This document shows positions 3,145 through 20,709 of a DNA stretch of 23,088 bases, in pieces. The notes under the pieces were generated by a model. It was not told the DNA's origin, did no database searches, and worked only from the letters and a program-made list of their open reading frames with translations. Where the stretch lies: IMG/VR virus record IMGVR_UViG_2563366797_000001, one strand, 5' to 3'. Each line of letters starts with the position of its first letter. Position 1 is the stretch's first letter. A program made the translations under genes and the position numbers. This DNA is from a virus (taxonomy: Duplodnaviria > Heunggongvirae > Uroviricota > Caudoviricetes).

Positions 3145-3161
3145 ATTGCTCTAATAATTCC
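3145..3161 (+). promoter_or_regulatory. C1 operator-like site
   Basis: ATTGCTCTAATAATTCC, two bases after the glycosyltransferase stop codon. Confidence 0.55.
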
Positions 3162-3169
3162 ATATTTTT

Positions 3170-3199
3170 AAAACGTGATGTACACTCATCACGTTTTTT
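3170..3199 (+). terminator. Intrinsic terminator hairpin (bidirectional-looking) between two inverted operator sites
   Basis: AAAACGTGATG-TACACT-CATCACGTTTT followed by T-run; preceded by T/A run on the other side. Confidence 0.55.
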
Positions 3200-3210
3200 A
3201 TTAGAGCAAT
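3194..3210 (-). promoter_or_regulatory. C1 operator-like site (inverted relative to 3145-3161)
   Basis: Minus-strand reading ATTGCTCTAATAAAAAA. Confidence 0.55.
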
Positions 3211-3652: not shown

Positions 3653-4159
3653 TTGAGTATTTTCAATAAACACGCACACCAGGAACGTCCGTACATCGTC
3701 ATAGTAGATATTGATGGGACGATATCAGAGGCAACGGAAGACAGGCTGCATTTACTTCCACCACCTGGCAAAGGTGCATTAACAGAGCACTGGAACGAGT
3801 TTAACCTTGCCTGTGACACTGATGCTCCCATCACTCCAGTTATTGATATGGTGCGCCAGTTGTCCGGCATTTACACCCTCTGGTTTGTAACCGGGCGCTG
3901 TGAGATAGCCAGGGATAAAACACGAGCCTGGTTGCGTAAGCACGTAACAAATGGGGCTGAGCCTTTGCTATCTATGCGTCCTGCCACCGATGACAGAAAT
4001 GACGGTCCAGCAAAGATTGATCTCCTGAAGAAAATTGGTCTAAGTAAAATTGCGTTCGCGCTGGAAGATAAGATTGAAGTGGCGCGTGTTTTCAGGAGTC
4101 ACGGCGTACTTACGTTAATGGTCAGGGAGTATGAAAACGCGCTTCTCCATCAACAATAA
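3653..4159 (+). CDS. HAD-superfamily phosphatase-like protein
   Basis: TTG start with strong GAGGAGGG Shine-Dalgarno. HAD motif I VIVDIDGTI (DxDGT), motif II LWFVTGR, acidic motif FALEDK. Confidence 0.5.
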   Translation: MSIFNKHAHQERPYIVIVDIDGTISEATEDRLHLLPPPGKGALTEHWNEFNLACDTDAPITPVIDMVRQLSGIYTLWFVTGRCEIARDKTRAWLRKHVTNGAEPLLSMRPATDDRNDGPAKIDLLKKIGLSKIAFALEDKIEVARVFRSHGVLTLMVREYENALLHQQ

Positions 4160-4175
4160 TTGCTCTAATAAATCT
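4159..4175 (+). promoter_or_regulatory. C1 operator site with promoter-like TTGATT immediately downstream
   Basis: ATTGCTCTAATAAATCT followed by CTTGATTTTT; the same operator-TTGATTTTT arrangement recurs at 18642. Confidence 0.6.
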
Positions 4176-4423: not shown

Positions 4424-7400
4424 CTATATTTTTCCGCCTACGCCTTTAAACTTCTCAATAAACGAGACGATTTTCTGGAAAACTGCCTGTTTTTTCGTTT
4501 TATATTGCGGATTCAACGGACTAAGTTTTGGTAATGTTTCGTTTAATTCTGTGCCATTTTCGGTGGCGTATTCGCGTTTTAAAGACGTGCGAATATAGCG
4601 TTTTGCTGCATCTTCATTGAGATTTTCTTCTTTTATCAATGCTTCTGCTTCACGTTGCTGTTCGCGTTGAGCAAACGTAAAGAATGCCTCAATGATACTG
4701 GCTTTGTCTGGTAAATCATCCAGGTTCGTTTGCTGAATAAAATCGACCACCAGGCCCTCTTTCGCCCGGTTCCCCAGGCTTGAACGAATTAAGCGTTTGA
4801 CCTCTTCGATCATTTCGCCCTTGCCTTTATTTTGTCTATTGTGTTCGAAAATCAGTCCAAGGATATAATCCAGGTTTATTTCCTGAGACTTCAGCAAATC
4901 GACCTCAAAAACTACGTCATCCCAGTCAGTGGTTGATTTCTCTTTTTTCTCAGCTTCTTTCTCACGGCGCTGCCAGTCGCGAATATCGTTATAGGCAGAA
5001 CGATAATCCTGAATCTTGCGATCAGCAGGGAGACGAATTGTTTGCAATTCAGCGAACTTTTCATTATCCACATAATGTTCTGCTTTGAATTTTTCTACCG
5101 CAACAGGATCGCTAAGATCGATTTGTTGCAGGGCTTTTAGCGTGGCAAATTCATCATAGTTTTGCAGGATGTTCTCGGCACGCAGGTATTCGCCAAACAG
5201 TTTAACGAAGTCTTTCTTCTCTTTTTCACTTTCAATACTGGTAGGGTCAGGGAACCGTTGTTCCAGTTCTGAAACTACTGTCATGAAGCCGCGTTTAGCT
5301 TCACCAGTGGCAGCATCAGTAAAGCCTTCCATATACTCTGCATAACTCTTTTCTAAAACCACATTTTTGGTATTTTTGTCACCAAACAGCGTTATGGCAT
5401 CAATGGTTGAGCGTTCCAGATCCCGGAACGTGACAATATTACCGAAGGTTTTAGTCGCGTCATAAATGCGGTTGGTGCGGGAGAATGCCTGCATCAGGCC
5501 GTGAAAACGCAAGTTTTTATCGACGAATAGCGTGTTTAATGTTGGAGCATCGAAGCCGGTTAAAAACATCCCCACGACAATTAGCAGATCGATATCCTGA
5601 TTTTTAACCCGCTGGGCTAAATCACGATAGTAGTTCTGAAAACCGTTACTGTCGGTGCTAAAGTTAGTTTTAAAATGGCTGTTATATTCACGAATTGCAG
5701 CGTCCAGAAACTCTTTAGCACTGCTGTCCATTGCGCTGGTATCAAAAGTTTCATCGGAAATTTCACCAATGGCATTTTGTTCTTCATTGGCGGCAAAGGA
5801 GAAGATTGTCGCAATACGCAGCGGTTTATAGGTAGCCGATTTATTAGCGGCTTCTTCTTGTAACCGTTTAAACGTCGCATAATAGGCTTTCGCGGCATCC
5901 ACGCTGCTCACTGCCAACATAGCATTAAAACCTTTTGAGCCAGGGAAGGTACGGTGGGTTTTCTGGCGGAAATTATTCAGAATATATTGCGTGATTTCCT
6001 GAATACGCATGGGATGAAGAAACGCCTGCTGATTTTCAGCCGCACTCAGTTTTTTCTCGTCAGTTTCTGTCTCTAAAGACTTAAACTGTGGCCGCACATC
6101 GTTGTAGTCCACCTTGAATTTGAGCACTTTTTCGTCACGAATCGCATCGGTAATTACATACGAATGCAATTCACGACCAAATACGCTGGCGGTTGTTTCT
6201 GAGCCTAAGGCGTTTTCCGGGAAAATAGGGGTGCCGGTAAAACCAAACTGATAATAGCGTTTGAATTTCTTCTTCAGGTTTTTCTGCGCTTCTCCAAACT
6301 GGCTGCGGTGGCATTCATCAAATATAAACACCACTTGCTGATTATATACAGGCAGATCGCTTTCTGCTTTCATCAGGTTATTGAGTTTCTGAATAGTAGT
6401 GACGATAATTTTGTTATCGTCCTTATCCAGATTTCGTTTAAGACCTGCGGTATTTTCCGAGCCGTTGACGCTGTCTGGCGAAAAACGCTGATATTCCTTC
6501 ATGGTCTGGTAATCGAGGTCTTTCCTGTCGACCACAAAGAAGACTTTATCAATAAAGTCCAGCTCTGTTGCCAGACGCGCGGCTTTAAAGCTGGTGAGGG
6601 TTTTACCAGAACCGGTAGTGTGCCAGATATACCCACCGCTTTCCGGTTTTGACCAGTTCTTCGCTGTAAAGGAACTCTTAATTTTCCACAGAATGCGCTC
6701 GGTGGCGGCAATCTGGTACGGTCGCATTACCAGTAGTGTCTGACTGCTGTCAAAAACGCTGTAGTTCACCAGAACATTAAGCAGAGTATGTTTCTGGAAA
6801 AAGGTAGCGGTAAAGTCTTTGAGGTCTTTAATCAGTGTATTGTCTGATTTAGCCCAGTTCATGGTGAAGTCAAAACTGTTTTTATCGCGCTTTGTGGTGT
6901 TGGCAAAATAACGGGTATCAGTGCCGTTGGAAATGACGAACAGCTGCAGATACTTAAACAGGGAATTTTCGCTGTTAAAACTCTCTTTACTGTAACGATG
7001 TATCTGGTTGAAAGCCTCACGAATCGCCACCCCGCGTTTTTTTAGTTCGATTTGCACCAGCGGTAAACCATTAACCAGGATCGTGACGTCATAACGGTTA
7101 GCATGAGAACCCGTCTGTTCAAACTGCTGGATAATCTGCACCTTATTGCGCATGAGATTCTTTTTATCTATCAAATAGATGTTCTCAAGACGCTCGTCAT
7201 CAAAAATAAAGTCGCAAATATAGTCGATATGGATTTTACGGGTCTTATCCAGAATGCCATCGCTCGGGTTATCCAGATACTGCTCCGTGAAACGCCGCCA
7301 CTCGCTGTCATTAAACACCACACCATTGAGGTTCTGAAGCTGTTCCCGAACATTGGCTAGCATCGCCGACTGTGATTTTACGGATATAAATTCATAGCCC

Positions 7401-7540
7401 TGATTCCGCAGGTCCTGAATCAGTTCACGTTCCAGGTCCGATTCGCTCTGGTAGCTGTCGCCTGTTTGCTCAGCTTTGATGTACTTATCAAGGACGATAA
7501 AGTTATTGGATTCAGCAATGGTGTGTGTTTGATGAGTCAT
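4424..7540 (-). CDS. hsdR: Type I restriction enzyme R subunit (HsdR)
   Basis: 1038 aa; Walker [18 protein letters not shown]-box-like [11 protein letters not shown], helicase motifs; last gene of the M-S-R operon. Confidence 0.95.
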
Positions 7541-7661
7541 AGCGCATCCTTTGTGCCGTCTGGCAAGGGCCGGAAGGGAGTTAAGGGCGACTTCCGGCGT
7601 GTAGAAAATAGTCTATATACTGACCGGATGTTAAGGTGGTCCGGTCTGTAAAAATGCTCAA

Positions 7662-8288
7662 TTAATTACTGGCTGTTTCAGGTTTTGGGAAACTGAACAG
7701 TAAATCACGATAGTACTCGTATTGTTTCTGGCGCAACTCGATTTCACGCGGGAGACCTTCGGTGATGGAGTTGGTCAGTGTGTCGAATTTGTCCAGAATT
7801 CGCACGATTTCAGACTGGATGGCAAGGGATTTTTCCGGATTATCCGGGCAGGGGATTGGGATTTTTTTTTGAGAATAATTACTAATCCATTGGCGTTTAT
7901 GGTCTCCCTCTGCGAATTCACTTGGTAATGTATTGAGCCAATAGTAAACATATTTCAGTAAGGTTTTATTATCATCACATGATGTAACCATTTTCATGGC
8001 CGATGATTTTGCCTTAAAGTCAAAATCCACCCATTTATTAGCGGTGGTGAAATCATCAAAAATTATTACAGGTGCCTTTGATGCCTGATAAATACCATGA
8101 GTCTCATTTGTGTATCCAAGAATAAATGTTTTTCCGGCAGTAAGAACCGGTATGGTATATGTGTCGTGATAATCTTTTGCTTTTACCAAATACTTTGTTG
8201 GCTGTTCATATTTGGTTATTTCCCCCAATGGCAACCACTCAACTTCAACCCCATCCAGCAATTTTTCCAGATAACTCATCTCGCTCAT
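7662..8288 (-). CDS. hsdS: Type I specificity subunit (HsdS), short single-TRD form
   Basis: 208 aa; start overlaps the hsdM stop by 4 nt (coupling); position between hsdM and hsdR; length is consistent with one target-recognition domain plus a conserved region. Confidence 0.8.
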
Positions 8289-9847
8289 TTCTGCACCTCG
8301 CAGCCTTCAATTTCAGCCACAATCGCATCAATATCTTTGCGCAACTGGTCGATTTTGCTGACCGTGGTTTTCAGCTCAGCATTCAGCTCACCGATATCGA
8401 TAATTTCGCGAGTATCTTTCGCTTCAACATAACTGCTCACCGACAGGTTATAGTCATTCGCGACAACAGTCTCAAACGCAACAGATTTCGCCAGATGGGC
8501 AACATCTTCCTTGCCGGCAAATACCTGCATAATCTGTTCGATATGGGCATCGGTCAGGATATTGTTGTTAGTCTCTTTTTTGAACAATTCGCTGGCATCA
8601 ATAAACTGAACTTTGGTATCCGTTTTATGTTTAGACAGCACCAGAATATTGACGGCAATGGTGGTGCCAAAGAACAGGTTCGGTGCCAGTGAAATCACGG
8701 TTTCGACATAGTTATTGTCGACCAGATATTGACGGATTTTCTGCTCTGCGCCGCCACGGTAAAAAATACCCGGGAAGCAGACAATCGCAGCACGACCTTT
8801 GGCCGAAAGATAGTTCAGCGCATGTAGTACAAACGCAAAGTCAGCTTTGGATTTGGGGGCCAGGACGCCAGCCGGGGCAAAACGTTCATCGTTAATCAGC
8901 GTCGGGTCATCGCTGCCAATCCATTTCACCGAATACGGCGGGTTAGAAACGATGGCATCAAACGGTTTTTCATCTCTGAAGTGTGGCTCAGTCAGTGTAT
9001 TACCCAGCTTGATATCAAACTTGTCGTAGTTGATGTTGTGCAAAAACATGTTCATACGTGCCAGGTTATAGGTTGTATGGTTGATTTCCTGACCAAAAAA
9101 GCCTTCTTCGATGATATGGTTATCAAACTGCTTTTTAGCCTGCAACAACAGTGAGCCGGAACCCGCTGCCGGGTCGTAGATTTTGTTAACGTTGGTCTGC
9201 CCGTGCATAGCCAGTTGTGCAATCAGCTTGGAGACGTGCTGCGGTGTAAAGAACTCACCGCCTGACTTACCGGCATTTGCCGCATAGTTAGAAATCAGGA
9301 ACTCATAGGCATCACCGAACAGGTCAATCTGATGTTCGTTGAAGTCACCAAGTTTTAACCCTTCAACCCCTTTCAGAACCGCAGCCAGGCGGGCATTTTT
9401 ATCTTTAACGGTGTTACCCAGGCGGTTACTGGTGGTATCGAAATCAGCAAACAAACCTTTGATGTCTGCTTCTGAAGGGTAGCCGTAAGCAGAACTTTCG
9501 ATAGCAACGAAGATGCTGTTTAAATCTGCGTTCAGTCTGTCATTGGTATTTGCTTTCGCAGCTACGTTGCAGAAAAGCTGACTTGGGTAGATGAAGTAGC
9601 CTTTGGTTTTGATGGCATCGTCTTTAATGTCATCAGTAATTACGCTGTCATCCAGTTTCGCATAACAGATGCTGTCATCACCGGCTTCAATATAGCTGGA
9701 AAAATTTTCGCTGATAAAACGGTAGAAAAGCGCGCCCAGAACGTATTGCTTAAAATCCCATCCATCGACCGAACCTCTGACATCGTTAGCAATTTGCCAG
9801 ATTTGACGATGAAGCTCTGCACGTTGTTGAATACTTGTCATTTTCAT
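8285..9847 (-). CDS. hsdM: Type I N6-adenine DNA methyltransferase (HsdM)
   Basis: 520 aa; NPPY motif ([11 protein letters not shown]), AdoMet-binding region ([10 protein letters not shown]), typical HsdM N-terminus. Confidence 0.95.
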
Positions 9848-10836: not shown

Positions 10837-11880
10837 GTGAAAGCCGTAATTACTCCCTTTGTACAGAAAGAACTTGGCCTCGCCACGTTCAAAGTGGATC
10901 AGGAGGTCAGAAAGCTGGTGGAGGCTGGCCGTAAATTTATTATGGAGCCGGTGCCGCGTGAGTTAATCGAGCACATGGACGACGGCCTCGTTGCTTCCGA
11001 GCAAACTATAGCAACAAATGAGGCGTTGCAGCCGTTTTTTAACAGCGATGAACTGTTTCGCCGTATTGGTGGAATTGACGCGCTGGTGGCGTGGTTGCGC
11101 AGGAAAGAGGGGCAATGCCAGGCCGCAGATCGTAGCTGGTGTGACAACCATATTGTCCACGCTGAACGAGACAATAGCGCGGTGTTGTTGTGCTGGCATC
11201 ACGATAACCATTACCGGATGCGTGGTTTTAATGAGCTGAAAGAAACGCTGCACAATAATCGCGTTAACTGGATACTGGATGTCGCCCGTCAGGAAATGGG
11301 CCTTTCAGATAGCCATGATTTAAGTATTCAGGAGCTGTGCTGGTGGGCTTTCATGCGTAACATGATGCACCTGATGCCGGAAGAAGTCTGCCGCATATCA
11401 ATAAATAAGATGAAGGCTGCTCCGCAGGATAGCGGACCTCTGAAAGAGGCGGATATTCGCCCGTATGACGATCGCGCTACAGCATATGTTCAGATGATGG
11501 AAGAACGCGCCGCGCCGATGCGTGCAAAAGTATGCCCTGTGGATGTTGACTCCGACCCAGGTATGGCGCATTTCAAAATACCAAAACTTCAATCGCTAAA
11601 ATTGCCCGAGTACATGGACTTTGTGGCTTCCCGTCCATGCTGTGGCTGTGGAGCTGCGGGAGCTGGCGCTCACATTACGCCTTATATCGTTCGTCATAGT
11701 CGATTATGCGCGCATGACATTTACGCAATTCCTCTGTGCCAGTCATGCCAGCGTGATATTGAGCGTGACCGCGATAATTGGGAGAAGACGCACGGTAGGC
11801 TGGCGATGCATCAACGATTGTTCTTTGATTACGCGCTTGGAGTCGGCGCTATCACAAGTTACTCGTCGAGCGTTAGATAA
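10837..11880 (+). CDS. Hypothetical Cys-rich protein (PdcB-position)
   Basis: 347 aa, GTG start with AAGGTG upstream; C-terminal cysteine cluster (CCGCGAAG...CAHD...CQSCQRD) suggests metal binding. Family not recognised. Confidence 0.5.
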
Positions 11881-11881
11881 A

Positions 11882-11898
11882 ATTGCTCTAATGTATTG
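11882..11898 (+). promoter_or_regulatory. C1 operator site upstream of the lpa-position gene
   Basis: ATTGCTCTAATGTATTG, directly after the stop of the preceding gene. Confidence 0.6.
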
Positions 11899-11968
11899 CT
11901 ATTTCTTTAATCGATGGTATTATATTCCACGTTGATTAGTTGACATGGGCTAATCAGTAGGTGACAGG

Positions 11969-12283
11969 ATGTTACTTAACTGGCAGGGACGCCACTTCAT
12001 GGAAATAAATCACTCACGAATAACATCGTACGAGATTGCGAATTACATGATCCGCACTAAATCTCTTCTATCAGCGAAAGAACTCGCAGCAATTCTTGAA
12101 AAGGAATACCCGCATCTGGATGTCGATAAGCGCGATGTTTATCTGCGCTTAAAAGCTATCGCTGTGTCTAAGTATTCGTCTGTTTTGATTGATGACAGTA
12201 CGAACGAAAGCGTGAAAATAACTGGTCAGTGCTGGAAGCAGCTGAATTCATCGAGGCGCATGGCGGGAAAGTGCCGCCCCTGA
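11969..12283 (+). CDS. Possible late-promoter-activator (Lpa-position) protein
   Basis: 104-aa ORF downstream of a C1 operator; assignment by position only. Confidence 0.3.
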
Positions 12284-12600
12284 TGCTGGAGCAAATCAAA
12301 GCCGATCTGCGTGCTCCTAAGACCAATACCGATGATGAGGAAAGGCAAACAGCCGTCGGTGGCCCTTCTCTTGAAGATCTGGACAAAGTTGCGCGAGAAC
12401 GGGCCGCCAACCGCCGCGCCGATGCCGCATTGTGGATTGAGCAGCGTAGGGAAGAAATCGCCGATATCGTTGATACAGGCGGTTATGGAGATGTTGATAC
12501 TGAAGGTGTATCAAACGACCCATGGCTGGAACAAGACCTGGACGAAGACGAGGAGGAAGACGAAGAAGTTACCCGCAAGCTATACGGGGATGATGATTAA
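12229..12600 (+). CDS. pacA: PacA-like terminase small-subunit C-terminal remnant
   Basis: 123 aa from GTG, acidic C-terminus ([11 protein letters not shown]); stop overlaps the pacB ATG (TAATG). Frame closed upstream at 12193. Far shorter than the recalled ~45-kDa P1 PacA. Confidence 0.4.
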
Positions 12601-12989
12601 TGGCCAGAAGTTGCGTAACGGATCCACGTTGGCGCGAGCTGGTGGCGCTATATCGTTATGACTGGATTGCGGCCGCTGATGTTTTGTTCGGCAAAACACC
12701 TACCTGGCAGCAGGATCTGATTATTGAGTCTGTGCAGGAACAGGGTAGCAAGACATCTGTTTCGTCTGGTCACGGTACCGGGAAATCAGACATGACTTCT
12801 ATCATGATCATGTTGTTCATAATCATGTATCCCGGTGCCCGCGCCATTATCGTTGCGAACAAAATTCAGCAGGTAATGACCGGTATATTCAAGTACATCA
12901 AGATAAACTGGGCTACTGCCACCAGCCGTTTTCCATGGCTTGCTGATTATTTTGTTCTGACAGAAACCGCTTTCTATGAGGTTACTGGT
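12600..12989 (+). pseudogene. pacB: pacB (terminase large subunit), N-terminal part, interrupted by IS2
   Basis: Walker [10 protein letters not shown]; reading frame runs into the IS2 end at 12990 and resumes in frame at 14326. Confidence 0.8.
12985..12989. repeat. IS2 target-site duplication, left copy (CTGGT)
   Basis: CTGGT immediately outside the IS2 terminus; identical copy at 14321-14325. Confidence 0.85.
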
Positions 12990-13000
12990 TGGATTTGCCC

Positions 13001-13906
13001 CTATATTTCCAGACACCTGTTATCACTTAACCCATTACTGGCTTGCTGCCGTAGATATTCCCGTGGCGAGCGATAACCCAGTGCACTATGCGGATGCCAT
13101 TCGTTATAATGCTCGAACGCCTCTGCAAGGTTCTTTGCTGCCGTTAACCCGTCTGGTTTGGGCATGACACTGATGTAGTCACGCTTTATCGTTTTCACGA
13201 AGCTCTCTGCTATGCCGTTACTCTCCGGACTCCGCACCGCCGTGCTCTTCGGTTCAAGCCCCAACATCCGGGCAAACTGCCGTGTTTCATTAGCCCGGTA
13301 GCATGAACCATTATCCGTCAGCCACTCTACTGGAGACGCCGGAAGCTCGTTGCCGAAGCGGCGTTCCACCGCTCCCAGCATGACGTCCTGTACTGTTTCA
13401 CTGTTGAAGCCGCCCGTAGTGACCGCCCAGTGCAGTGCCTCACGGTCACAGCAGTCCAGCGCGAACGTGACTCGCAGTTTTTCTCCGTTATCACAGCGGA
13501 ACTCGAACCCGTCAGAGCACCATCGCTGATTACTTTCTTTCACAGCCACTCTGCCTGTATGTGCCCGTTTCGATGGCGGTACAGCAGGTTTTCGCTCAAG
13601 CAACAGCGCATTCTGGCGCATGATCCGGTAAACACGTTTGGCATTGATCGCAGGCATACCATCAAGTTCTGCCTGTCTGCGAAGCAGCGCCCATACCCGA
13701 CGATAACCATACGTGGGCAGCTCTCCGATAACATGGTGTATACGGAGAAGCACATCCGTATCATCAGTGTGACGACTGCGGCGGCCATCCATCCAGTCAT
13801 CGGTTCGTCTGAGAATGACGTGCAACTGCGCACGCGACACCCGGAGACAACGGCTGACTAAGCTTACTCCCCATCCCCGGGCAATAAGGGCGCGTGCGCT
13901 ATCCAC
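13001..13906 (-). CDS. insD: IS2 transposase OrfB (InsD)
   Basis: 301 aa, DDE integrase-type sequence (...WCSDGFEF...LTDNGSCY...). Confidence 0.9.
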
Positions 13907-14229
13907 TTTTTTGCCCGTCCATATTCAACGGCTTCTTTGAGGAGTTCATTTTCCATCGTTTTCTTGCCGAGCAGGCGCTGGAGTTCTTTAATCTGCTTCA
14001 TGGCGGCAGCAAGTTCAGAGGCAGGAACAACCTGTTCTCCGGCGGCGACAGCAGTAAGACTTCCTTCCTGGTATTGCTTACGCCAGAGAAATAACTGGCT
14101 GGCTGCTACACCATGTTGCCGGGCAACGAGGGAGACCGTCATCCCCGGTTCAAAACTCTGCTGAACAATTGCGATCTTTTCCTGTGTGGTACGCCGTCTG
14201 CGTTTCTCCGGTCCTAAGACATCAATCAT
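13864..14229 (-). CDS. insC: IS2 OrfA (InsC)
   Basis: [41 protein letters not shown]...; helix-turn-helix N-terminus; start taken at MIDVL (121 aa). Confidence 0.9.
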
Positions 14230-14320
14230 CTGCTCTCCAATGACTAGTCTAAAAACTAGTATTAAGACTATCACTTAAATAAGTGATACTGGTTGTCTGG
14301 AGATTCAGGGGGCCAGTCTA

Positions 14321-15420: not shown

Positions 15421-15423
15421 ACA

Positions 15424-15440
15424 CTTGCTCTAATAAATTG
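15424..15440 (+). promoter_or_regulatory. C1 operator-like site heading the antirepressor module
   Basis: CTTGCTCTAATAAATTG, followed by TTGACT and a possible -10. Confidence 0.55.
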
Positions 15441-15572
15441 TGTTTTTTGACTGCCGATGTTACATTGAACCTGACCTCTTGCGCCTTGAGGCATTTTCGG
15501 TTTATGCTTATCAGGCACCTCATTAAAACGGGTGCCGGGATTGAGACCCCGGATAATGTCAAAGGCGACACA

Positions 15573-15594
15573 GACGCCGAAAGCGTCTTTTTTT
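15573..15594 (+). terminator. Intrinsic terminator-like hairpin inside the antirepressor leader
   Basis: GACGC-CGAAA-GCGTC followed by T7; flanked by complementary GACACA/TGTGTC. Confidence 0.5.
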
Positions 15595-15779
15595 GTGTCA
15601 TGCCATCGCACAGCCATACGTAGCGTTTAGCTCCGAAATCAATGGTAGTGCTGGCTGGGCTGCCGAAAGGCAGGCCGGTTCCCTTTGACGCCGGTAGTCT
15701 CAACCCAGTCAGTGCTACCGCCATTGAGATTGAGACCTCACGCGGTAGCTCCTTAACTTAGTCAAAGGAGGCTGCCATT

Positions 15780-16001
15780 ATGGCTACTGTCCCTACCCCA
15801 ATTCATCCTGAATTTATCTGGCGCTTTTACTCCTGCCAAAAACGTCACTATCACTTCGTTATTGCACCGACAGAAGATGAGGCCCATTCTCAGCTTCCTG
15901 ACGCCCCATGTATTTTCTCTGCCCGTTTTTCCACTGATTCACGCAATTCTCTCAGTTACTGGTGCCTCCCTGTTAACGCTTCTGCTCAGGAGGGACTATG
16001 A
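15780..16001 (+). CDS. Small protein translationally coupled to the antirepressor gene (Icd-like position)
   Basis: 73 aa; strong AAGGAGG Shine-Dalgarno; stop overlaps the downstream ATG (ATGA). Confidence 0.4.
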   Translation: MATVPTPIHPEFIWRFYSCQKRHYHFVIAPTEDEAHSQLPDAPCIFSARFSTDSRNSLSYWCLPVNASAQEGL

Positions 16002-17116
16002 GAACGTCATTAGTTACCCGTGAAGAGATGATCGAGGCAATTGAACAGCACACTGCCTGTATCAGTACTAGGGATATACCGGGCGTTATTGCCAACTACT
16101 TCATGATCACCAAACAACTTTACCGGAGAAAGGACAAGAACGCAGTTCACCGCATCCTGCTGTCTGATATCCGCGAATACCTGCTCGAACAGGGGCATCT
16201 GAATTACGCAACCGCCGCAGCCGAATCACGCAAGGAGGCACACAGAATGAAAGCAACTAACGTTAAATCAGAAAAAATTCATGCACCTTCAGTTCAGGAA
16301 TCGGAGCTGGTGGTTGTTCAGAATCAGTCTGATGAAATTCCCGTTCTGGAATGGCAGGGAGTGCGTGTAGTGACAACCGAGACTCTTGCTAGAGGGTATG
16401 GGACAGAAACAATCCGTATTCGCCAAAATCATCATGAGAACAAAGTACGCTTTGTTGAAGGGAAGCACTTTTTCAAAGTTGAAGGAGAATCATTGCGCGA
16501 GTTGAAGCACAGAGTAGCTTTAAACTACTCTGTAAAAATTGCTCGCAATGTTCGCTCACTCACCCTCTGGACAGAACGCGGCGCAGCCCGCCACGCTAAA
16601 ATGCTCGAAACCGATCAGGCATGGGCATTCTTTGAAAAACTGGAAGACAGCTACTTCCGACAAAAAGAACAGCAACCGATCGCAATCCCCCAGACGCTTC
16701 CTGAAGCCCTACGCCTGGCTGCCGAACTGGCTGAACAAAAGCAACTTCTGGAACAGAAAGCCCACCAGCTAAATCAGCAGCTGGTGGCCGCCGCTCCTAA
16801 AGTCGATTTTGCCGACCGGGTATCAGTAGCTAAAGGGATCCTGATTGGGAATTTTGCAAAGGTTGTTGGACTTAAGCAAAACGCGCTGTTTGTCTGGTTA
16901 CGGGAGAACGGCATCCTGATAGCGTCCGGTGGACGTAAAAATGTGCCGTTCCAGCAGTACATCAACGCGGGGTATTTCACGGTGAAAGAAGTGGTGCTGG
17001 ATGATGAAGATGGCTACCAGATACGGTTGACGCCTCAATTAACGGGTAAAGGCCAGCAGTGGTTGACGCGTAAACTGCTCGATGCTGGCTTGTTAAAACC
17101 GGTGGCGGCTGAATAA
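15998..17116 (+). CDS. Antirepressor-like protein (N-terminal ORF6N domain, C-terminal KilAC/Ant domain)
   Basis: 372 aa; N-terminal ...WQGVRVVTTETLARGYGTETIRIRQNHHENKVRFVEGKHFF... (ORF6N pattern), C-terminal ...FVWLRENGILI...YINAGYF... (Ant C-terminal pattern); convergent with c1. Confidence 0.7.
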   Translation: MRTSLVTREEMIEAIEQHTACISTRDIPGVIANYFMITKQLYRRKDKNAVHRILLSDIREYLLEQGHLNYATAAAESRKEAHRMKATNVKSEKIHAPSVQESELVVVQNQSDEIPVLEWQGVRVVTTETLARGYGTETIRIRQNHHENKVRFVEGKHFFKVEGESLRELKHRVALNYSVKIARNVRSLTLWTERGAARHAKMLETDQAWAFFEKLEDSYFRQKEQQPIAIPQTLPEALRLAAELAEQKQLLEQKAHQLNQQLVAAAPKVDFADRVSVAKGILIGNFAKVVGLKQNALFVWLRENGILIASGGRKNVPFQQYINAGYFTVKEVVLDDEDGYQIRLTPQLTGKGQQWLTRKLLDAGLLKPVAAE

Positions 17117-17123
17117 TGGAAGA

Positions 17124-17145
17124 ATGCCCGGTTGATGCCGGGCAT
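17124..17145. terminator. Hairpin between the convergent antirepressor and c1 genes
   Basis: ATGCCCGG-TTGATG-CCGGGCAT; no strong T-tract on either side. Confidence 0.35.
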
Positions 17146-17148
17146 AAT

Positions 17149-18000
17149 TTATTGCGCGCTTTCGGGGTTGTCGTTTACTGGCTGCCCCTTCTTGGTTTTA
17201 CGGCTGCGCGTAACTGATGCGGCTGACTTAACCTTTTTCTCTTCGCGAGTGATGGCAATTTGTTTTTTTACATTTTCAATATCTGCCAGGCGATATATTT
17301 TTGCTTGCGGCCAGCGGTCGCAGATGATCGGTTCTATGGAGTCATAAAGGCTAAATTTTGCTTTTTCGAATTCACCGTTGATGATAATTCCATCACGGAG
17401 AGTTTCATCGCAGATAAACACGCCACACAGTGGCACATGGTAACTAACTGATTTACCATCATTGTAGTTAGGGCTACTGGAAATGTAGTGGACGCGCAGC
17501 ATTGTTTCGCTAAAGCCGTGTACGCGCATACGGAATTTTTCATCCTCCGGGTACTGCTTCATTAGCTCTTTTGTTGCTTCCAGGTTCTCTATGTATTTCG
17601 CACTGTGCTCATTGATCCCCGCGCTTTTTTGGATGCGAATGTCCTTATCAATCAGATGAATAATGCGGCCAGCGGTCATGTTGACGCTGTTCACAGCTTC
17701 TGTCTGATAAGTTGTAACCTTACGCACACCGCGAAGGATGTTAGGCACTGGATATAAAATAGTCTTTGGGATATTGAGGTCTGGGTACTGTTCCAGTTCC
17801 CGCGCCATTAAAGTCCATTTATCAATTTCAGCCTGAATGCTGTCAGTTTCTTTGAACGGTAGAACGACAACCGGGCGTACAGGACGACCGTCGCTGGCTG
17901 TATCAACGTGTTGGGCGCGTGCAACAGCTTTTTTTAGAAAGAGATCCCTGAAGCTGACGAACTCCTGGTACAGTTGTTCGCCGTAGACATAATTTATCAT
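17149..18000 (-). CDS. c1: C1 repressor of lysis (primary immunity repressor)
   Basis: 283 aa, MINYVYGEQLYQEFVSFRDLFLKKAVARAQHV..., matches recalled P1 C1; GGAGGAGG Shine-Dalgarno. Confidence 0.95.
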   Translation of the reverse strand: MINYVYGEQLYQEFVSFRDLFLKKAVARAQHVDTASDGRPVRPVVVLPFKETDSIQAEIDKWTLMARELEQYPDLNIPKTILYPVPNILRGVRKVTTYQTEAVNSVNMTAGRIIHLIDKDIRIQKSAGINEHSAKYIENLEATKELMKQYPEDEKFRMRVHGFSETMLRVHYISSSPNYNDGKSVSYHVPLCGVFICDETLRDGIIINGEFEKAKFSLYDSIEPIICDRWPQAKIYRLADIENVKKQIAITREEKKVKSAASVTRSRKTKKGQPVNDNPESAQ

Positions 18001-18094: not shown

Positions 18095-18111
18095 AGATTT
18101 ATTAGTGCATT
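18095..18111 (-). promoter_or_regulatory. C1 autoregulatory operator (Op99a-type)
   Basis: Minus-strand AATGCACTAATAAATCT between coi and c1. Confidence 0.6.
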
Positions 18112-18558: not shown

Positions 18559-18575
18559 TAATTTATTAGAGCAAT
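18559..18575 (-). promoter_or_regulatory. C1 operator site (immC upstream region)
   Basis: Minus-strand ATTGCTCTAATAAATTA. Confidence 0.6.
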
Positions 18576-18641
18576 TGTCAAACAACTATGAAAAACAATC
18601 CAGTTTTTAGCTGGTGGAGTGGGATTTTTCTCTCAAAATTT

Positions 18642-18658
18642 ATTGCTCTAATAATTCT
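18642..18658 (+). promoter_or_regulatory. C1 operator site with adjacent TTGATT promoter element
   Basis: ATTGCTCTAATAATTCT followed by TGATTTTTGTG. Confidence 0.6.
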
Positions 18659-19153: not shown

Positions 19154-20185
19154 ATGTCCAATTTACTGACCGTACACCAAAATTTGCCTGCATTACCGGT
19201 CGATGCAACGAGTGATGAGGTTCGCAAGAACCTGATGGACATGTTCAGGGATCGCCAGGCGTTTTCTGAGCATACCTGGAAAATGCTTCTGTCCGTTTGC
19301 CGGTCGTGGGCGGCATGGTGCAAGTTGAATAACCGGAAATGGTTTCCCGCAGAACCTGAAGATGTTCGCGATTATCTTCTATATCTTCAGGCGCGCGGTC
19401 TGGCAGTAAAAACTATCCAGCAACATTTGGGCCAGCTAAACATGCTTCATCGTCGGTCCGGGCTGCCGCGACCAAGTGATAGCAATGCTGTTTCACTGGT
19501 TATGCGGCGGATCCGAAAAGAAAACGTTGATGCCGGTGAACGTGCAAAACAGGCACTAGCGTTCGAACGCACTGATTTCGACCAGGTTCGTTCACTCATG
19601 GAAAATAGCGATCGCTGCCAGGATATACGTAATCTGGCATTTCTGGGGATTGCTTATAACACCCTGTTACGTATAGCCGAAATTGCCAGGATCAGGGTTA
19701 AAGATATCTCACGTACTGACGGTGGGAGAATGTTAATCCATATTGGCAGAACGAAAACGCTGGTTAGCACCGCAGGTGTAGAGAAGGCACTTAGCCTGGG
19801 GGTAACTAAACTGGTCGAGCGATGGATTTCTGTCTCTGGTGTGGCTGATGATCCGAATAACTACCTGTTTTGCCGGGTCAGAAAAAATGGTGTTGCCTCG
19901 CCATCACCCACCAGCCAGCTATCAACTCGCGCCCTAGAAGGGATTTTTGAAGCAACTCACCGATTGATTTACGGGGCTAAGGATGACTCTGGACAGAGGT
20001 ACCTGGCCTGGTCTGGACACAGTGCCCGTGTCGGAGCCGCGCGAGATATGGCCCGTGCCGGAGTTTCAATACCGGAGATCATGCAAGCTGGTGGCTGGAC
20101 CAACGTAAATATTGTCATGAACTATATCCGTAACCTGGATAGTGAAACAGGGGCAATGGTGCGCCTGCTGGAAGATGGCAATTAG
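19154..20185 (+). CDS. cre: Cre tyrosine recombinase
   Basis: 343 aa, MSNLLTVHQNLPALPVDATSDEVRKNLMDMFRDRQAFSEHTWKMLLSVCRSW..., matches recalled P1 Cre; sits about 420 bp from loxP. Confidence 0.97.
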   Translation: MSNLLTVHQNLPALPVDATSDEVRKNLMDMFRDRQAFSEHTWKMLLSVCRSWAAWCKLNNRKWFPAEPEDVRDYLLYLQARGLAVKTIQQHLGQLNMLHRRSGLPRPSDSNAVSLVMRRIRKENVDAGERAKQALAFERTDFDQVRSLMENSDRCQDIRNLAFLGIAYNTLLRIAEIARIRVKDISRTDGGRMLIHIGRTKTLVSTAGVEKALSLGVTKLVERWISVSGVADDPNNYLFCRVRKNGVASPSPTSQLSTRALEGIFEATHRLIYGAKDDSGQRYLAWSGHSARVGAARDMARAGVSIPEIMQAGGWTNVNIVMNYIRNLDSETGAMVRLLEDGN

Positions 20186-20679: not shown

Positions 20680-20709
20680 ATTGCTCTAATTGATTGCTAT
20701 AATTTAGCC
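20680..20709 (+). promoter_or_regulatory. Tandem overlapping C1 operators (Op2-type) with embedded TATAAT; ref promoter
   Basis: ATTGCTCTAATTGATTG overlapping ATTGCTATAATTTAGCC; perfect TATAAT at 20698-20703. Confidence 0.65.

Follow-up and report, generated by a model that had tools for sequence, protein, structure and literature searches.

A candidate second c4-icd-ant immunity circuit between pacB and c1 of P1-like phage-plasmids

Why should a P1-like phage-plasmid carry an antirepressor-like gene directly beside the gene for its own repressor, at a place where P1 has no gene at all? The question is raised by the IMG/VR virus record IMGVR_UViG_2563366797_000001, a stretch of 23,088 nucleotides (hereafter the window) whose open reading frames (ORFs), together with database searches, identify it as a P1-like phage-plasmid. 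In P1, the stop codons of pacB and c1 lie 24 bp apart with no gene between them, so that positions 15421-17148 of the window, between pacB (stop codon 15418-15420) and c1, represent an extra block of 1.7 kb; the block is absent from this site in both P1 and P7. An earlier note on this DNA, which knew of no gene here in canonical P1, had described an antirepressor module placed between pacB and c1, convergent with c1 and following the logic of the P1 immI region (antisense RNA, small coupled ORF, antirepressor). The synteny comparison and the coordinates agree with that description, and every part of the immI logic was found. We believe that the block would be a positional paralogue of P1/P7 immI, that is, a second c4-icd-ant1/ant2 immunity circuit, and we put the probability of this reading, which is made from sequence comparison, at about 0.85.

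Coupled icd- and ant-like genes behind a structured leader

Two overlapping genes on the plus strand make up the coding part of the block. The icd-like gene (15780-16001) follows a strong Shine-Dalgarno sequence, AAGGAGG at 15765-15771, and its product, like P1 Icd, is 73 aa long; the two proteins are 80% identical, and the product matches the NCBIfam family NF033153 phage_ICD_like (E 3e-12); a Pfam search of the same ORF returned no match. The ant1-like antirepressor gene (15998-17116, 372 aa) overlaps the icd stop in an ATGA, and from this overlap we infer that translation of the two genes is coupled. Pfam places an ORF6N domain (PF10543, E 2e-19) at residues 116-202 of the 372-aa protein and a C-terminal ANT/KilAC domain (PF03374, E 4.4e-31) at residues 260-361, and the protein is 56% identical overall to P1 Ant1 (BLASTP E 5e-130). 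The likeness to P1 Ant1 is unevenly spread: the N-terminal 84 residues are conserved and residues 229-372 are close, and the central region is replaced by ORF6N. A sequence search of solved structures with this protein gave no match. What the earlier note had read as a well-translated 73-aa ORF, coupled by ATGA to an ORF6N/KilAC antirepressor-like gene, can now be named as homologues of Icd and Ant1.

Nested in frame within the antirepressor gene is a 289-aa, ant2-like ORF (16247-17116, plus strand) that starts at codon 84 behind a Shine-Dalgarno sequence of its own, AAGGAGG at 16232-16238. The ant2 gene of P1 likewise begins at codon 84 of ant1, and the surrounding KEAHRM motif is conserved; the Ant1/Ant2 antirepressor of P1 is repressed by c4 RNA (PMC8546580). 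Nearly all of the related loci that we compared keep the 73-codon icd and the ATGA overlap, and in most of them ant is 370-372 codons long. In E. coli H15 plasmid A and in vB_EcoM-673R5, ant is frameshifted by single-base deletions, at positions equivalent to 16969 (locus L003) and 16587 (locus L002) of the window, respectively. The module as a whole is a mosaic of patches common to different relatives, and a divergent patch at 16401-16600, inside the ORF6N domain, would represent such a mosaic exchange among variants.

Upstream of these genes, the earlier note had proposed a structured noncoding leader with hairpins that might encode a small regulatory RNA, and both parts of the proposal are supported by folding and by covariance-model searches. 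The whole leader folds better than shuffled sequence (z = -4.9), and two RNA elements are recognised within it, both on the plus strand. The upstream element (15515-15595) is a leader RNA of IsrK type or c4-a1b1 type, with two hairpins and an intrinsic terminator at its end; it matches the Rfam isrK model at 15515-15593 with 60.2 bits (gathering score 50) and the c4-a1b1 model weakly, with 22.3 bits, below the gathering score of 46.7. The terminator, which the earlier note had set at 15573-15594, comprises in our stem-loop scan a stem-loop at 15572-15588 and a T-run that extends to 15595. The downstream element is a c4 antisense RNA, encoded in the same direction as icd and ant: the Rfam C4 model matches 15638-15725 with 75.4 bits (gathering score 45), and from an alignment with the 77-nt c4 of P1 a mature RNA of 15644-15722 is predicted. 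The c4 segment folds into the three-helix shape of the family (minimum free energy -46.5 kcal/mol, z = -5.6 against shuffled sequences), and compensatory changes occur in 16 of the 27 base pairs of its stems among 17 distinct homologues, although this count leans towards structure because the alignment was fitted to the model. In the same place, the Prokaryotic Genome Annotation Pipeline (PGAP) calls a coding sequence for a 39-aa "ash family protein" (15642-15761 of the window, equivalent to L003:3222-3341 and L005:16123-16242). This frame coincides with the c4 RNA and gave no match in a search of NCBIfam, and most likely it is not a protein gene.

The two RNAs and the start of icd are linked by two sets of recognition segments, a and b, all on the plus strand. 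The segment a1, TTGAGAC (15541-15547), lies in the loop of the second hairpin of the upstream element, and b1, GTCAAAGG (15558-15565), lies in a stretch that is weakly paired in the single-sequence fold. The c4 RNA carries b', CCTTTGAC (15682-15689), the exact complement of b1 and b2, and a', GTCTCAA (15697-15703), the exact complement of a1 and a2. The target a2, TTGAGAC (15730-15736), occupies the position of the annotated P1 a2 and is preceded by a partial extra copy, TTGAGA, at 15723-15728; the target b2, GTCAAAGG (15761-15768), overlaps the icd Shine-Dalgarno sequence. The potential for pairing is therefore exact at all four sites, and the motifs are concentrated here, with three of the four occurrences of the a-type motif in the window (TTGAGAC or its complement) and all three of the b-type motif in the 23 kb (GTCAAAGG or its complement) falling within the leader. 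The earlier note had correctly seen copies of TTGAGAC facing GTCTCAA; it had placed the complement 2 nt away, at 15699-15705, and had missed b/b', the pair that covers the ribosome-binding site.

The block opens, directly after the pacB stop codon, with a C1-operator-like site on the plus strand, as the earlier note had also seen. The site, CTTGCTCTAATAAATTG at 15424-15440, matches the C1 operator consensus ATTGCTCTAATAAATTT at 15 of 17 positions, with two mismatches, and is kept in related loci; in P1 immI, Op51 (Oc4) sits in the same place relative to its promoter. Sites with up to three mismatches to the consensus number nine in the window, against 0.07 expected by chance. The eight others lie within 3145-3210, at 4159-4175, 11882-11898 and 18095-18111, within 18559-18658 and at 20680-20696, and the pair at 3145-3161 and 3194-3210 is divergent.

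The promoter-like hexamers of the earlier note fared less evenly, for they can be read by eye and aligned with the P1 promoters but fall below the threshold of a promoter scanner. Candidate promoter 1 (15438-15466, plus strand; -35 TTGTGT, 17-nt spacer, -10 TACATT) is overlapped by the operator-like site and, by alignment with the annotated P1 promoter, would be the counterpart of P2c4 (former P51a); its pattern was found in 62 of the 71 loci of the D6-type c4 lineage to which the c4 of the window belongs. Candidate promoter 2 (15479-15508, plus strand; -35 TTGCGC, 18-nt spacer, -10 TATGCT, with 8 of 12 consensus matches) would be the counterpart of P1c4 (former P51b), and the start predicted from it, at about 15515, is position 1 of the Rfam isrK model; we put this second promoter forward as a weak inference. 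The consensus promoter scan of the leader returned no plus-strand promoter, with 15438-15466 scoring below threshold, so that it is the alignment with P1 that points to the leader promoters; the nearest match of the scan, on the minus strand at 15839-15811, is at chance level (2 found against 1.5 expected).

Recognition types of c4 within and beyond P1-like elements

How close does this bring the block to known systems? In the order and spacing of its parts the block agrees with P1/P7 immI throughout: a candidate promoter overlapped by an operator-like site, a possible second promoter, a1/b1, c4, a2/b2, of which b2 covers the ribosome-binding site of icd, then icd itself with 73 codons, an ATGA-coupled ant1 and an ant2 from codon 84. 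A terminator-like hairpin follows a1/b1 in P1 immI as it does in the leader of the window. The systems differ in location, since immI of P1 lies between sim and kilA-repL, whereas the window module lies between pacB and c1, and also in the c4 backbone, which in the window is of the D6 lineage, and in the central region of Ant, which is ORF6N. In sister plasmids, moreover, a module of the window type exists beside a canonical immI; as the canonical site is separately occupied in pUTAK-22-3, the window module would be a paralogue at another site and not the immI locus itself.

In the plasmid prophage D6, the DNA of the leader and of the beginning of icd is 93.6% identical to that of the window module, and the c4 backbone and a' are the same. 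However, b' is CCTTTTGC in D6 and CCTTTGAC in the window, with matching changes in b1 and b2, the gene downstream in D6 encodes a putative antirepressor of the Rha family rather than an Ant1 homologue, and the D6 module lies downstream of ref rather than between pacB and c1. Genes for regulators or antirepressors are preceded by the same RNA families in Stx phages, phiP27, P4 and APSE-7 as well; in the record of APSE-7, C4, isrK and the a'/b' regions are annotated explicitly. In these cases the DNA identity is only 66-75%, the downstream genes and phage types are others and, in P4, the regulatory outcome is control of transcription termination. The CI RNA of P4 is a known structural relative of c4.

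The isrK-orf45-anrP locus of Gifsy-1 resembles the block in a different respect. It has a leader of the isrK model with an intrinsic terminator, a small ORF coupled to an antirepressor on a read-through mRNA, and a processed RNA that is located downstream of IsrK and complementary to it (PMC4825925). Hershko-Shalev et al. 2016 reported that the short IsrK RNA activates translation of the coupled small ORF and antirepressor; they likened STnc1160, the downstream complementary RNA, to the P4 CI RNA, and the P4 CI RNA with its seqA/seqC to the IsrK locus (PMC4825925). In contrast to Gifsy-1, the window has a 73-aa Icd homologue instead of orf45, an antirepressor like P1 Ant, a C1-operator-like site and the setting of a P1-type plasmid prophage.

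It is in the recognition segments that the module departs from the canonical copies. In the P1 circuit, a is TTGACAG and b is GTTAGTG; in the canonical, P7-like immI of the sister plasmid pUTAK-22-3 they are TTAGCAG and GATTGTG; in the pacB-c1 module of the window they are TTGAGAC and GTCAAAGG. In each of the three the c4 loops are exactly complementary to a and b. Cognate duplexes have predicted energies of about -9 and -12.7 kcal/mol, against -1.6 to -5.6 kcal/mol for the c4 of the window with P1-type or P7-like targets, and this gap is as large as that between the P1 and the P7-like types. P1 and P7 are a known heteroimmune pair. Judged by predicted pairing, recognition by the window module is orthogonal to that of the canonical immI copy of sister plasmids, and the module would thereby add a second, independent immunity specificity.

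A wider survey places this type among others. Loci containing icd were gathered from GTDB genomes and from IMG/VR; as the GTDB collection holds one genome per species, the scan of it with Icd gave only 6 loci, and the IMG/VR scan supplied the diversity. A covariance model built from four c4 sequences was run against the 93 sources, and c4 was found just upstream of every icd-like gene. The search gave 94 c4 hits, 93 of which were assigned to 13 specificity types. In 12 of the 13 types, a1, b1, a2 and b2 are exact complements of a' and b' and change in concert with them; the 13th, the 673R5-type, pairs via G·U wobbles. Exact matching had failed at three of the four sites of the 673R5-type, and a c4 mismatched to its targets was considered and rejected when the alignment showed G·U pairing. 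The one hit left over comes from phage D6 (L008:3074-3153, 42.7 bits), where a second, weakly matching c4-like sequence precedes the main c4 by about 470 nt; no clear matching targets were found for it.

With one exception, the c4 lineage follows the site. At the pacB-c1 site c4 is of the D6 lineage, with a' GTCTCAA, GTTCCAA or AGGCCAA and b' CCTTTGAC, CCTTTTGC or CCTTGGAC, in five combinations; at the canonical site, and at a third site downstream of ref, c4 is of the P1 lineage, with a' CTGTCAA or CTGCTAA and five types of b'. Within loci L001-L093, every two-by-two combination that we examined exists: TTGAGAC and TTGGAAC each occur with GTCAAAGG and with GCAAAAGG, and TTGACAG and TTAGCAG each occur with GTTAGTG and with GATTGTG. 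Each switch of specificity requires matching 2-nt changes at three separated sites (a1, a' and a2, or b1, b' and b2). Modules that reside together at different sites differ in specificity in all nine of the genomes or contigs with two or three modules. It is conceivable, at odds that we would place a little short of even, that P1-like phage-plasmids carry two or three orthogonal c4-icd-ant circuits with at least 13 specificities, and that a and b reassort freely within c4 lineages, so as to form a combinatorial RNA immunity barcode. Such a barcode, if it exists, would decide which relatives can induce the resident element or be silenced by it.

Some individual loci from the survey are worth recording. 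The third immI-like site, downstream of ref, is present in some P1-like contigs (L078, L081, L088, L089, L092 and others), often with an ant of the ORF6N type. The contig IMGVR_UViG_2698536372_000019 holds three modules (L021, L087 and L092), and at L021:2119-4965 there is a perfect 1566-bp tandem duplication of c4-icd-ant at the contig end, which may be real or an assembly artefact. At L081 there are two divergent modules that have a' in common and differ in b'. Two P1-like immI loci (L011 and L012), whose Icd protein is 79-92% identical to the query, come from JAFAFU01, the "Bacillota bacterium" metagenome-assembled genome OH_SBlB_19, and are almost certainly mis-binned Escherichia plasmid contigs.

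A model of the circuit and its rivals

In the studies of P1 by Citron & Schuster 1990/1992, Biere et al. 1992, Riedel et al. 1993 and Heinrich et al. 1995, c4 is said to be processed from the leader and to block translation of icd, which reportedly prevents translation of ant and lets transcription terminate; Ant1/Ant2 are said to bind C1, and C1 to control one of two promoters. By analogy with P1, we propose that the block would be transcribed from one promoter overlapped by the C1 operator and probably also from a second, constitutive promoter. The c4 RNA would be cut from the leader transcript, as by RNase P in P1, and would pair with a2/b2 to block translation of icd. As translation of ant would depend on that of icd, ant would be blocked too, and transcription would terminate prematurely. 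By analogy with Gifsy-1, the short terminated a1/b1 RNA, the equivalent of IsrK, may compete for c4, or for the c4 segment in the long transcript, and thereby free the ribosome-binding site of icd; that such an RNA binds Hfq and activates the read-through mRNA in trans is known only from the Gifsy-1 experiments (PMC4825925). In this way the resident element would silence its second antirepressor by its own c4. On entry into a cell without a matching c4, as when an incoming relative has a c4 of another type than the resident element, Ant1/Ant2 would be expressed and would inactivate the shared C1, with a push towards lytic expression. The presumed target of Ant is thus the product of the adjoining c1 gene (17149-18000, minus strand), which is identical to P1 C1 at 281 of 283 residues (99%).

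Several findings weigh against a second immunity circuit of this kind. The central third of Ant, being ORF6N, differs from P1 Ant1, which makes C1 binding by Ant an assumption, and the frameshifts of ant in some close relatives indicate that ant is dispensable at least sometimes. The leader promoters resemble the consensus only weakly, and the scanner called neither of them. Finally, the host element carries lesions at 11189-14318: 1097 bp are missing relative to RCS47, comprising the 3' end of lpa and the 5' end of pacA, with the truncated genes fused at about 12199-12201, and pacB is interrupted by an IS2-family element with inverted repeats at 12998-13029 and 14280-14311. With these lesions the element is packaging-defective, and prophage induction by its copy of the block would therefore yield no phage. 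The lesions, together with the 1-nt frameshift that H15 plasmid A and 673R5 each have in ant, could mean that the module is an inactive relic which has not yet decayed and which contributes nothing to a plasmid that does not make phage. Nevertheless, the module itself is intact in the window, with both ORFs, both Shine-Dalgarno sequences, the ATGA overlap and all six pairing segments, most related loci keep their ant at its usual length, and the c4 of a defective element could still act in trans on incoming phages; of the explanations weighed here, we consider a relic the least probable.

The ORF6N domain, unlike the middle region of P1 Ant1, also allows that Ant acts not on its own C1 but on another target, for example the repressors of other resident prophages, in the manner of the trans-acting Gifsy antirepressors, or that a KilA-like toxic protein and division arrest by Icd together form an exclusion or abortive device. 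The KilAC domain is shared by proteins whose partners differ, P1 KilA among them; in D6, Stx phages and phiP27, a leader with the same combination of isrK and C4 drives regulators of the Rha type; and antirepressor cross-talk between prophages is documented (PMC3121763). However, given that the Ant1-specific N-terminus and residues 229-372 are close to P1 Ant1, the Ant2 start included, that the gene adjoins a C1 almost identical to that of P1, and that the module opens with a C1-operator-like site, we regard a different target as distinctly unlikely, if somewhat less so than a relic. A further doubt concerns the RNA rather than the protein: the leader might be mainly an activator switch of the IsrK type, in which c4 is no trans repressor that defines immunity. 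The upstream element indeed scores as isrK (60 bits) and not as c4-a1b1 (22 bits) and has a good intrinsic terminator, and activation by a short RNA was demonstrated in the Gifsy-1 experiments. Yet the two mechanisms are not exclusive, and the Gifsy-1 paper itself reports STnc1160 as complementary to IsrK (PMC4825925). Concerted diversification of a', b' and their four targets into 13 types is what would be expected from selection for trans-acting specificities, and the differing types of co-resident modules fit the same expectation; we therefore find a leader that serves mainly as an activator switch unlikely, though the least so of these three alternatives, and retain a second c4-icd-ant immunity circuit as the preferred reading.

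Distribution and genomic setting of the block

On one point the earlier note needs correction, for the arrangement is not unusual. The same block separates pacB from c1 in RCS47, whose annotation shows only "ant", in vB_EcoM-673R5 and JL22, in E. coli H15 plasmid A, which is the closest overall relative of the element in the window, and in pUTAK-22-3, where it is 98.7% identical and where a separate canonical immI is also present. That the module might be unique to the window was accordingly considered and rejected, since it is shared with RCS47, with JL22 and with plasmids of E. coli by the hundred. At least 80% of the module is present in 322 PLSDB plasmids and in 322 of 5426 complete E. coli genomes, and the 3' end of pacB is present in 552 of the same 5426 genomes. 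By these counts the module appears to be present in over half of the P1-like elements of E. coli, a ratio that is rough because some matches may lie at other sites.

Nor is the block new to the annotation record. PGAP already names its proteins "host cell division inhibitor Icd-like" and "phage antirepressor KilAC domain-containing". In one sentence on pTZ20_1P, Venturini et al. 2019 mention that an insertion of two short ORFs and ant separates its pacB from its c1, as it does in RCS47 (PMC6906374), and a second c4/icd region has been seen in a D6-like plasmid (PMC6799933). In our literature search, no publication was found to describe the block as a second immI whose c4 has a specificity of its own, and a search on multiple c4 specificities or for the D6 paper found nothing directly usable. 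The block is common and already in databases and literature, and all of its parts are of known kind; it is the RNA specificity that is new. As the parts are known in kind and the insertion is on record, the value of the finding lies in comparison and annotation and not in new concepts. Textbook P1 has one immI operon, whereas most sequenced P1-like plasmids of E. coli appear to carry a second beside c1, and canonical P1 would for this reason give too sparse a picture of how immunity is wired in its family. A second circuit whose RNA specificity is its own would affect the range of superinfecting relatives that are tolerated, the induction of P1-like plasmids, which are often carriers of resistance genes, and the number of heteroimmunity groups.

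The surroundings of the block are those of a rearranged P1-like element. The gene order in the window is a type I restriction-modification system, doc, pdcB, the truncated lpa and pacA, the pacB split by the IS2-family element, the block, c1, coi, cre (19154-20185) and ref. E. coli H15 plasmid A carries the same IS2-family element. Between the convergent ant and c1 lies a GC-rich hairpin (17124-17145) with a 9-bp stem and a weak T-run, which is likely to terminate transcription from both directions. The type I restriction-modification system at 4424-9847, which precedes doc, pdcB and pacB, consists of an EcoR124-type HsdR, HsdM and a short HsdS-like ORF of 208 aa.

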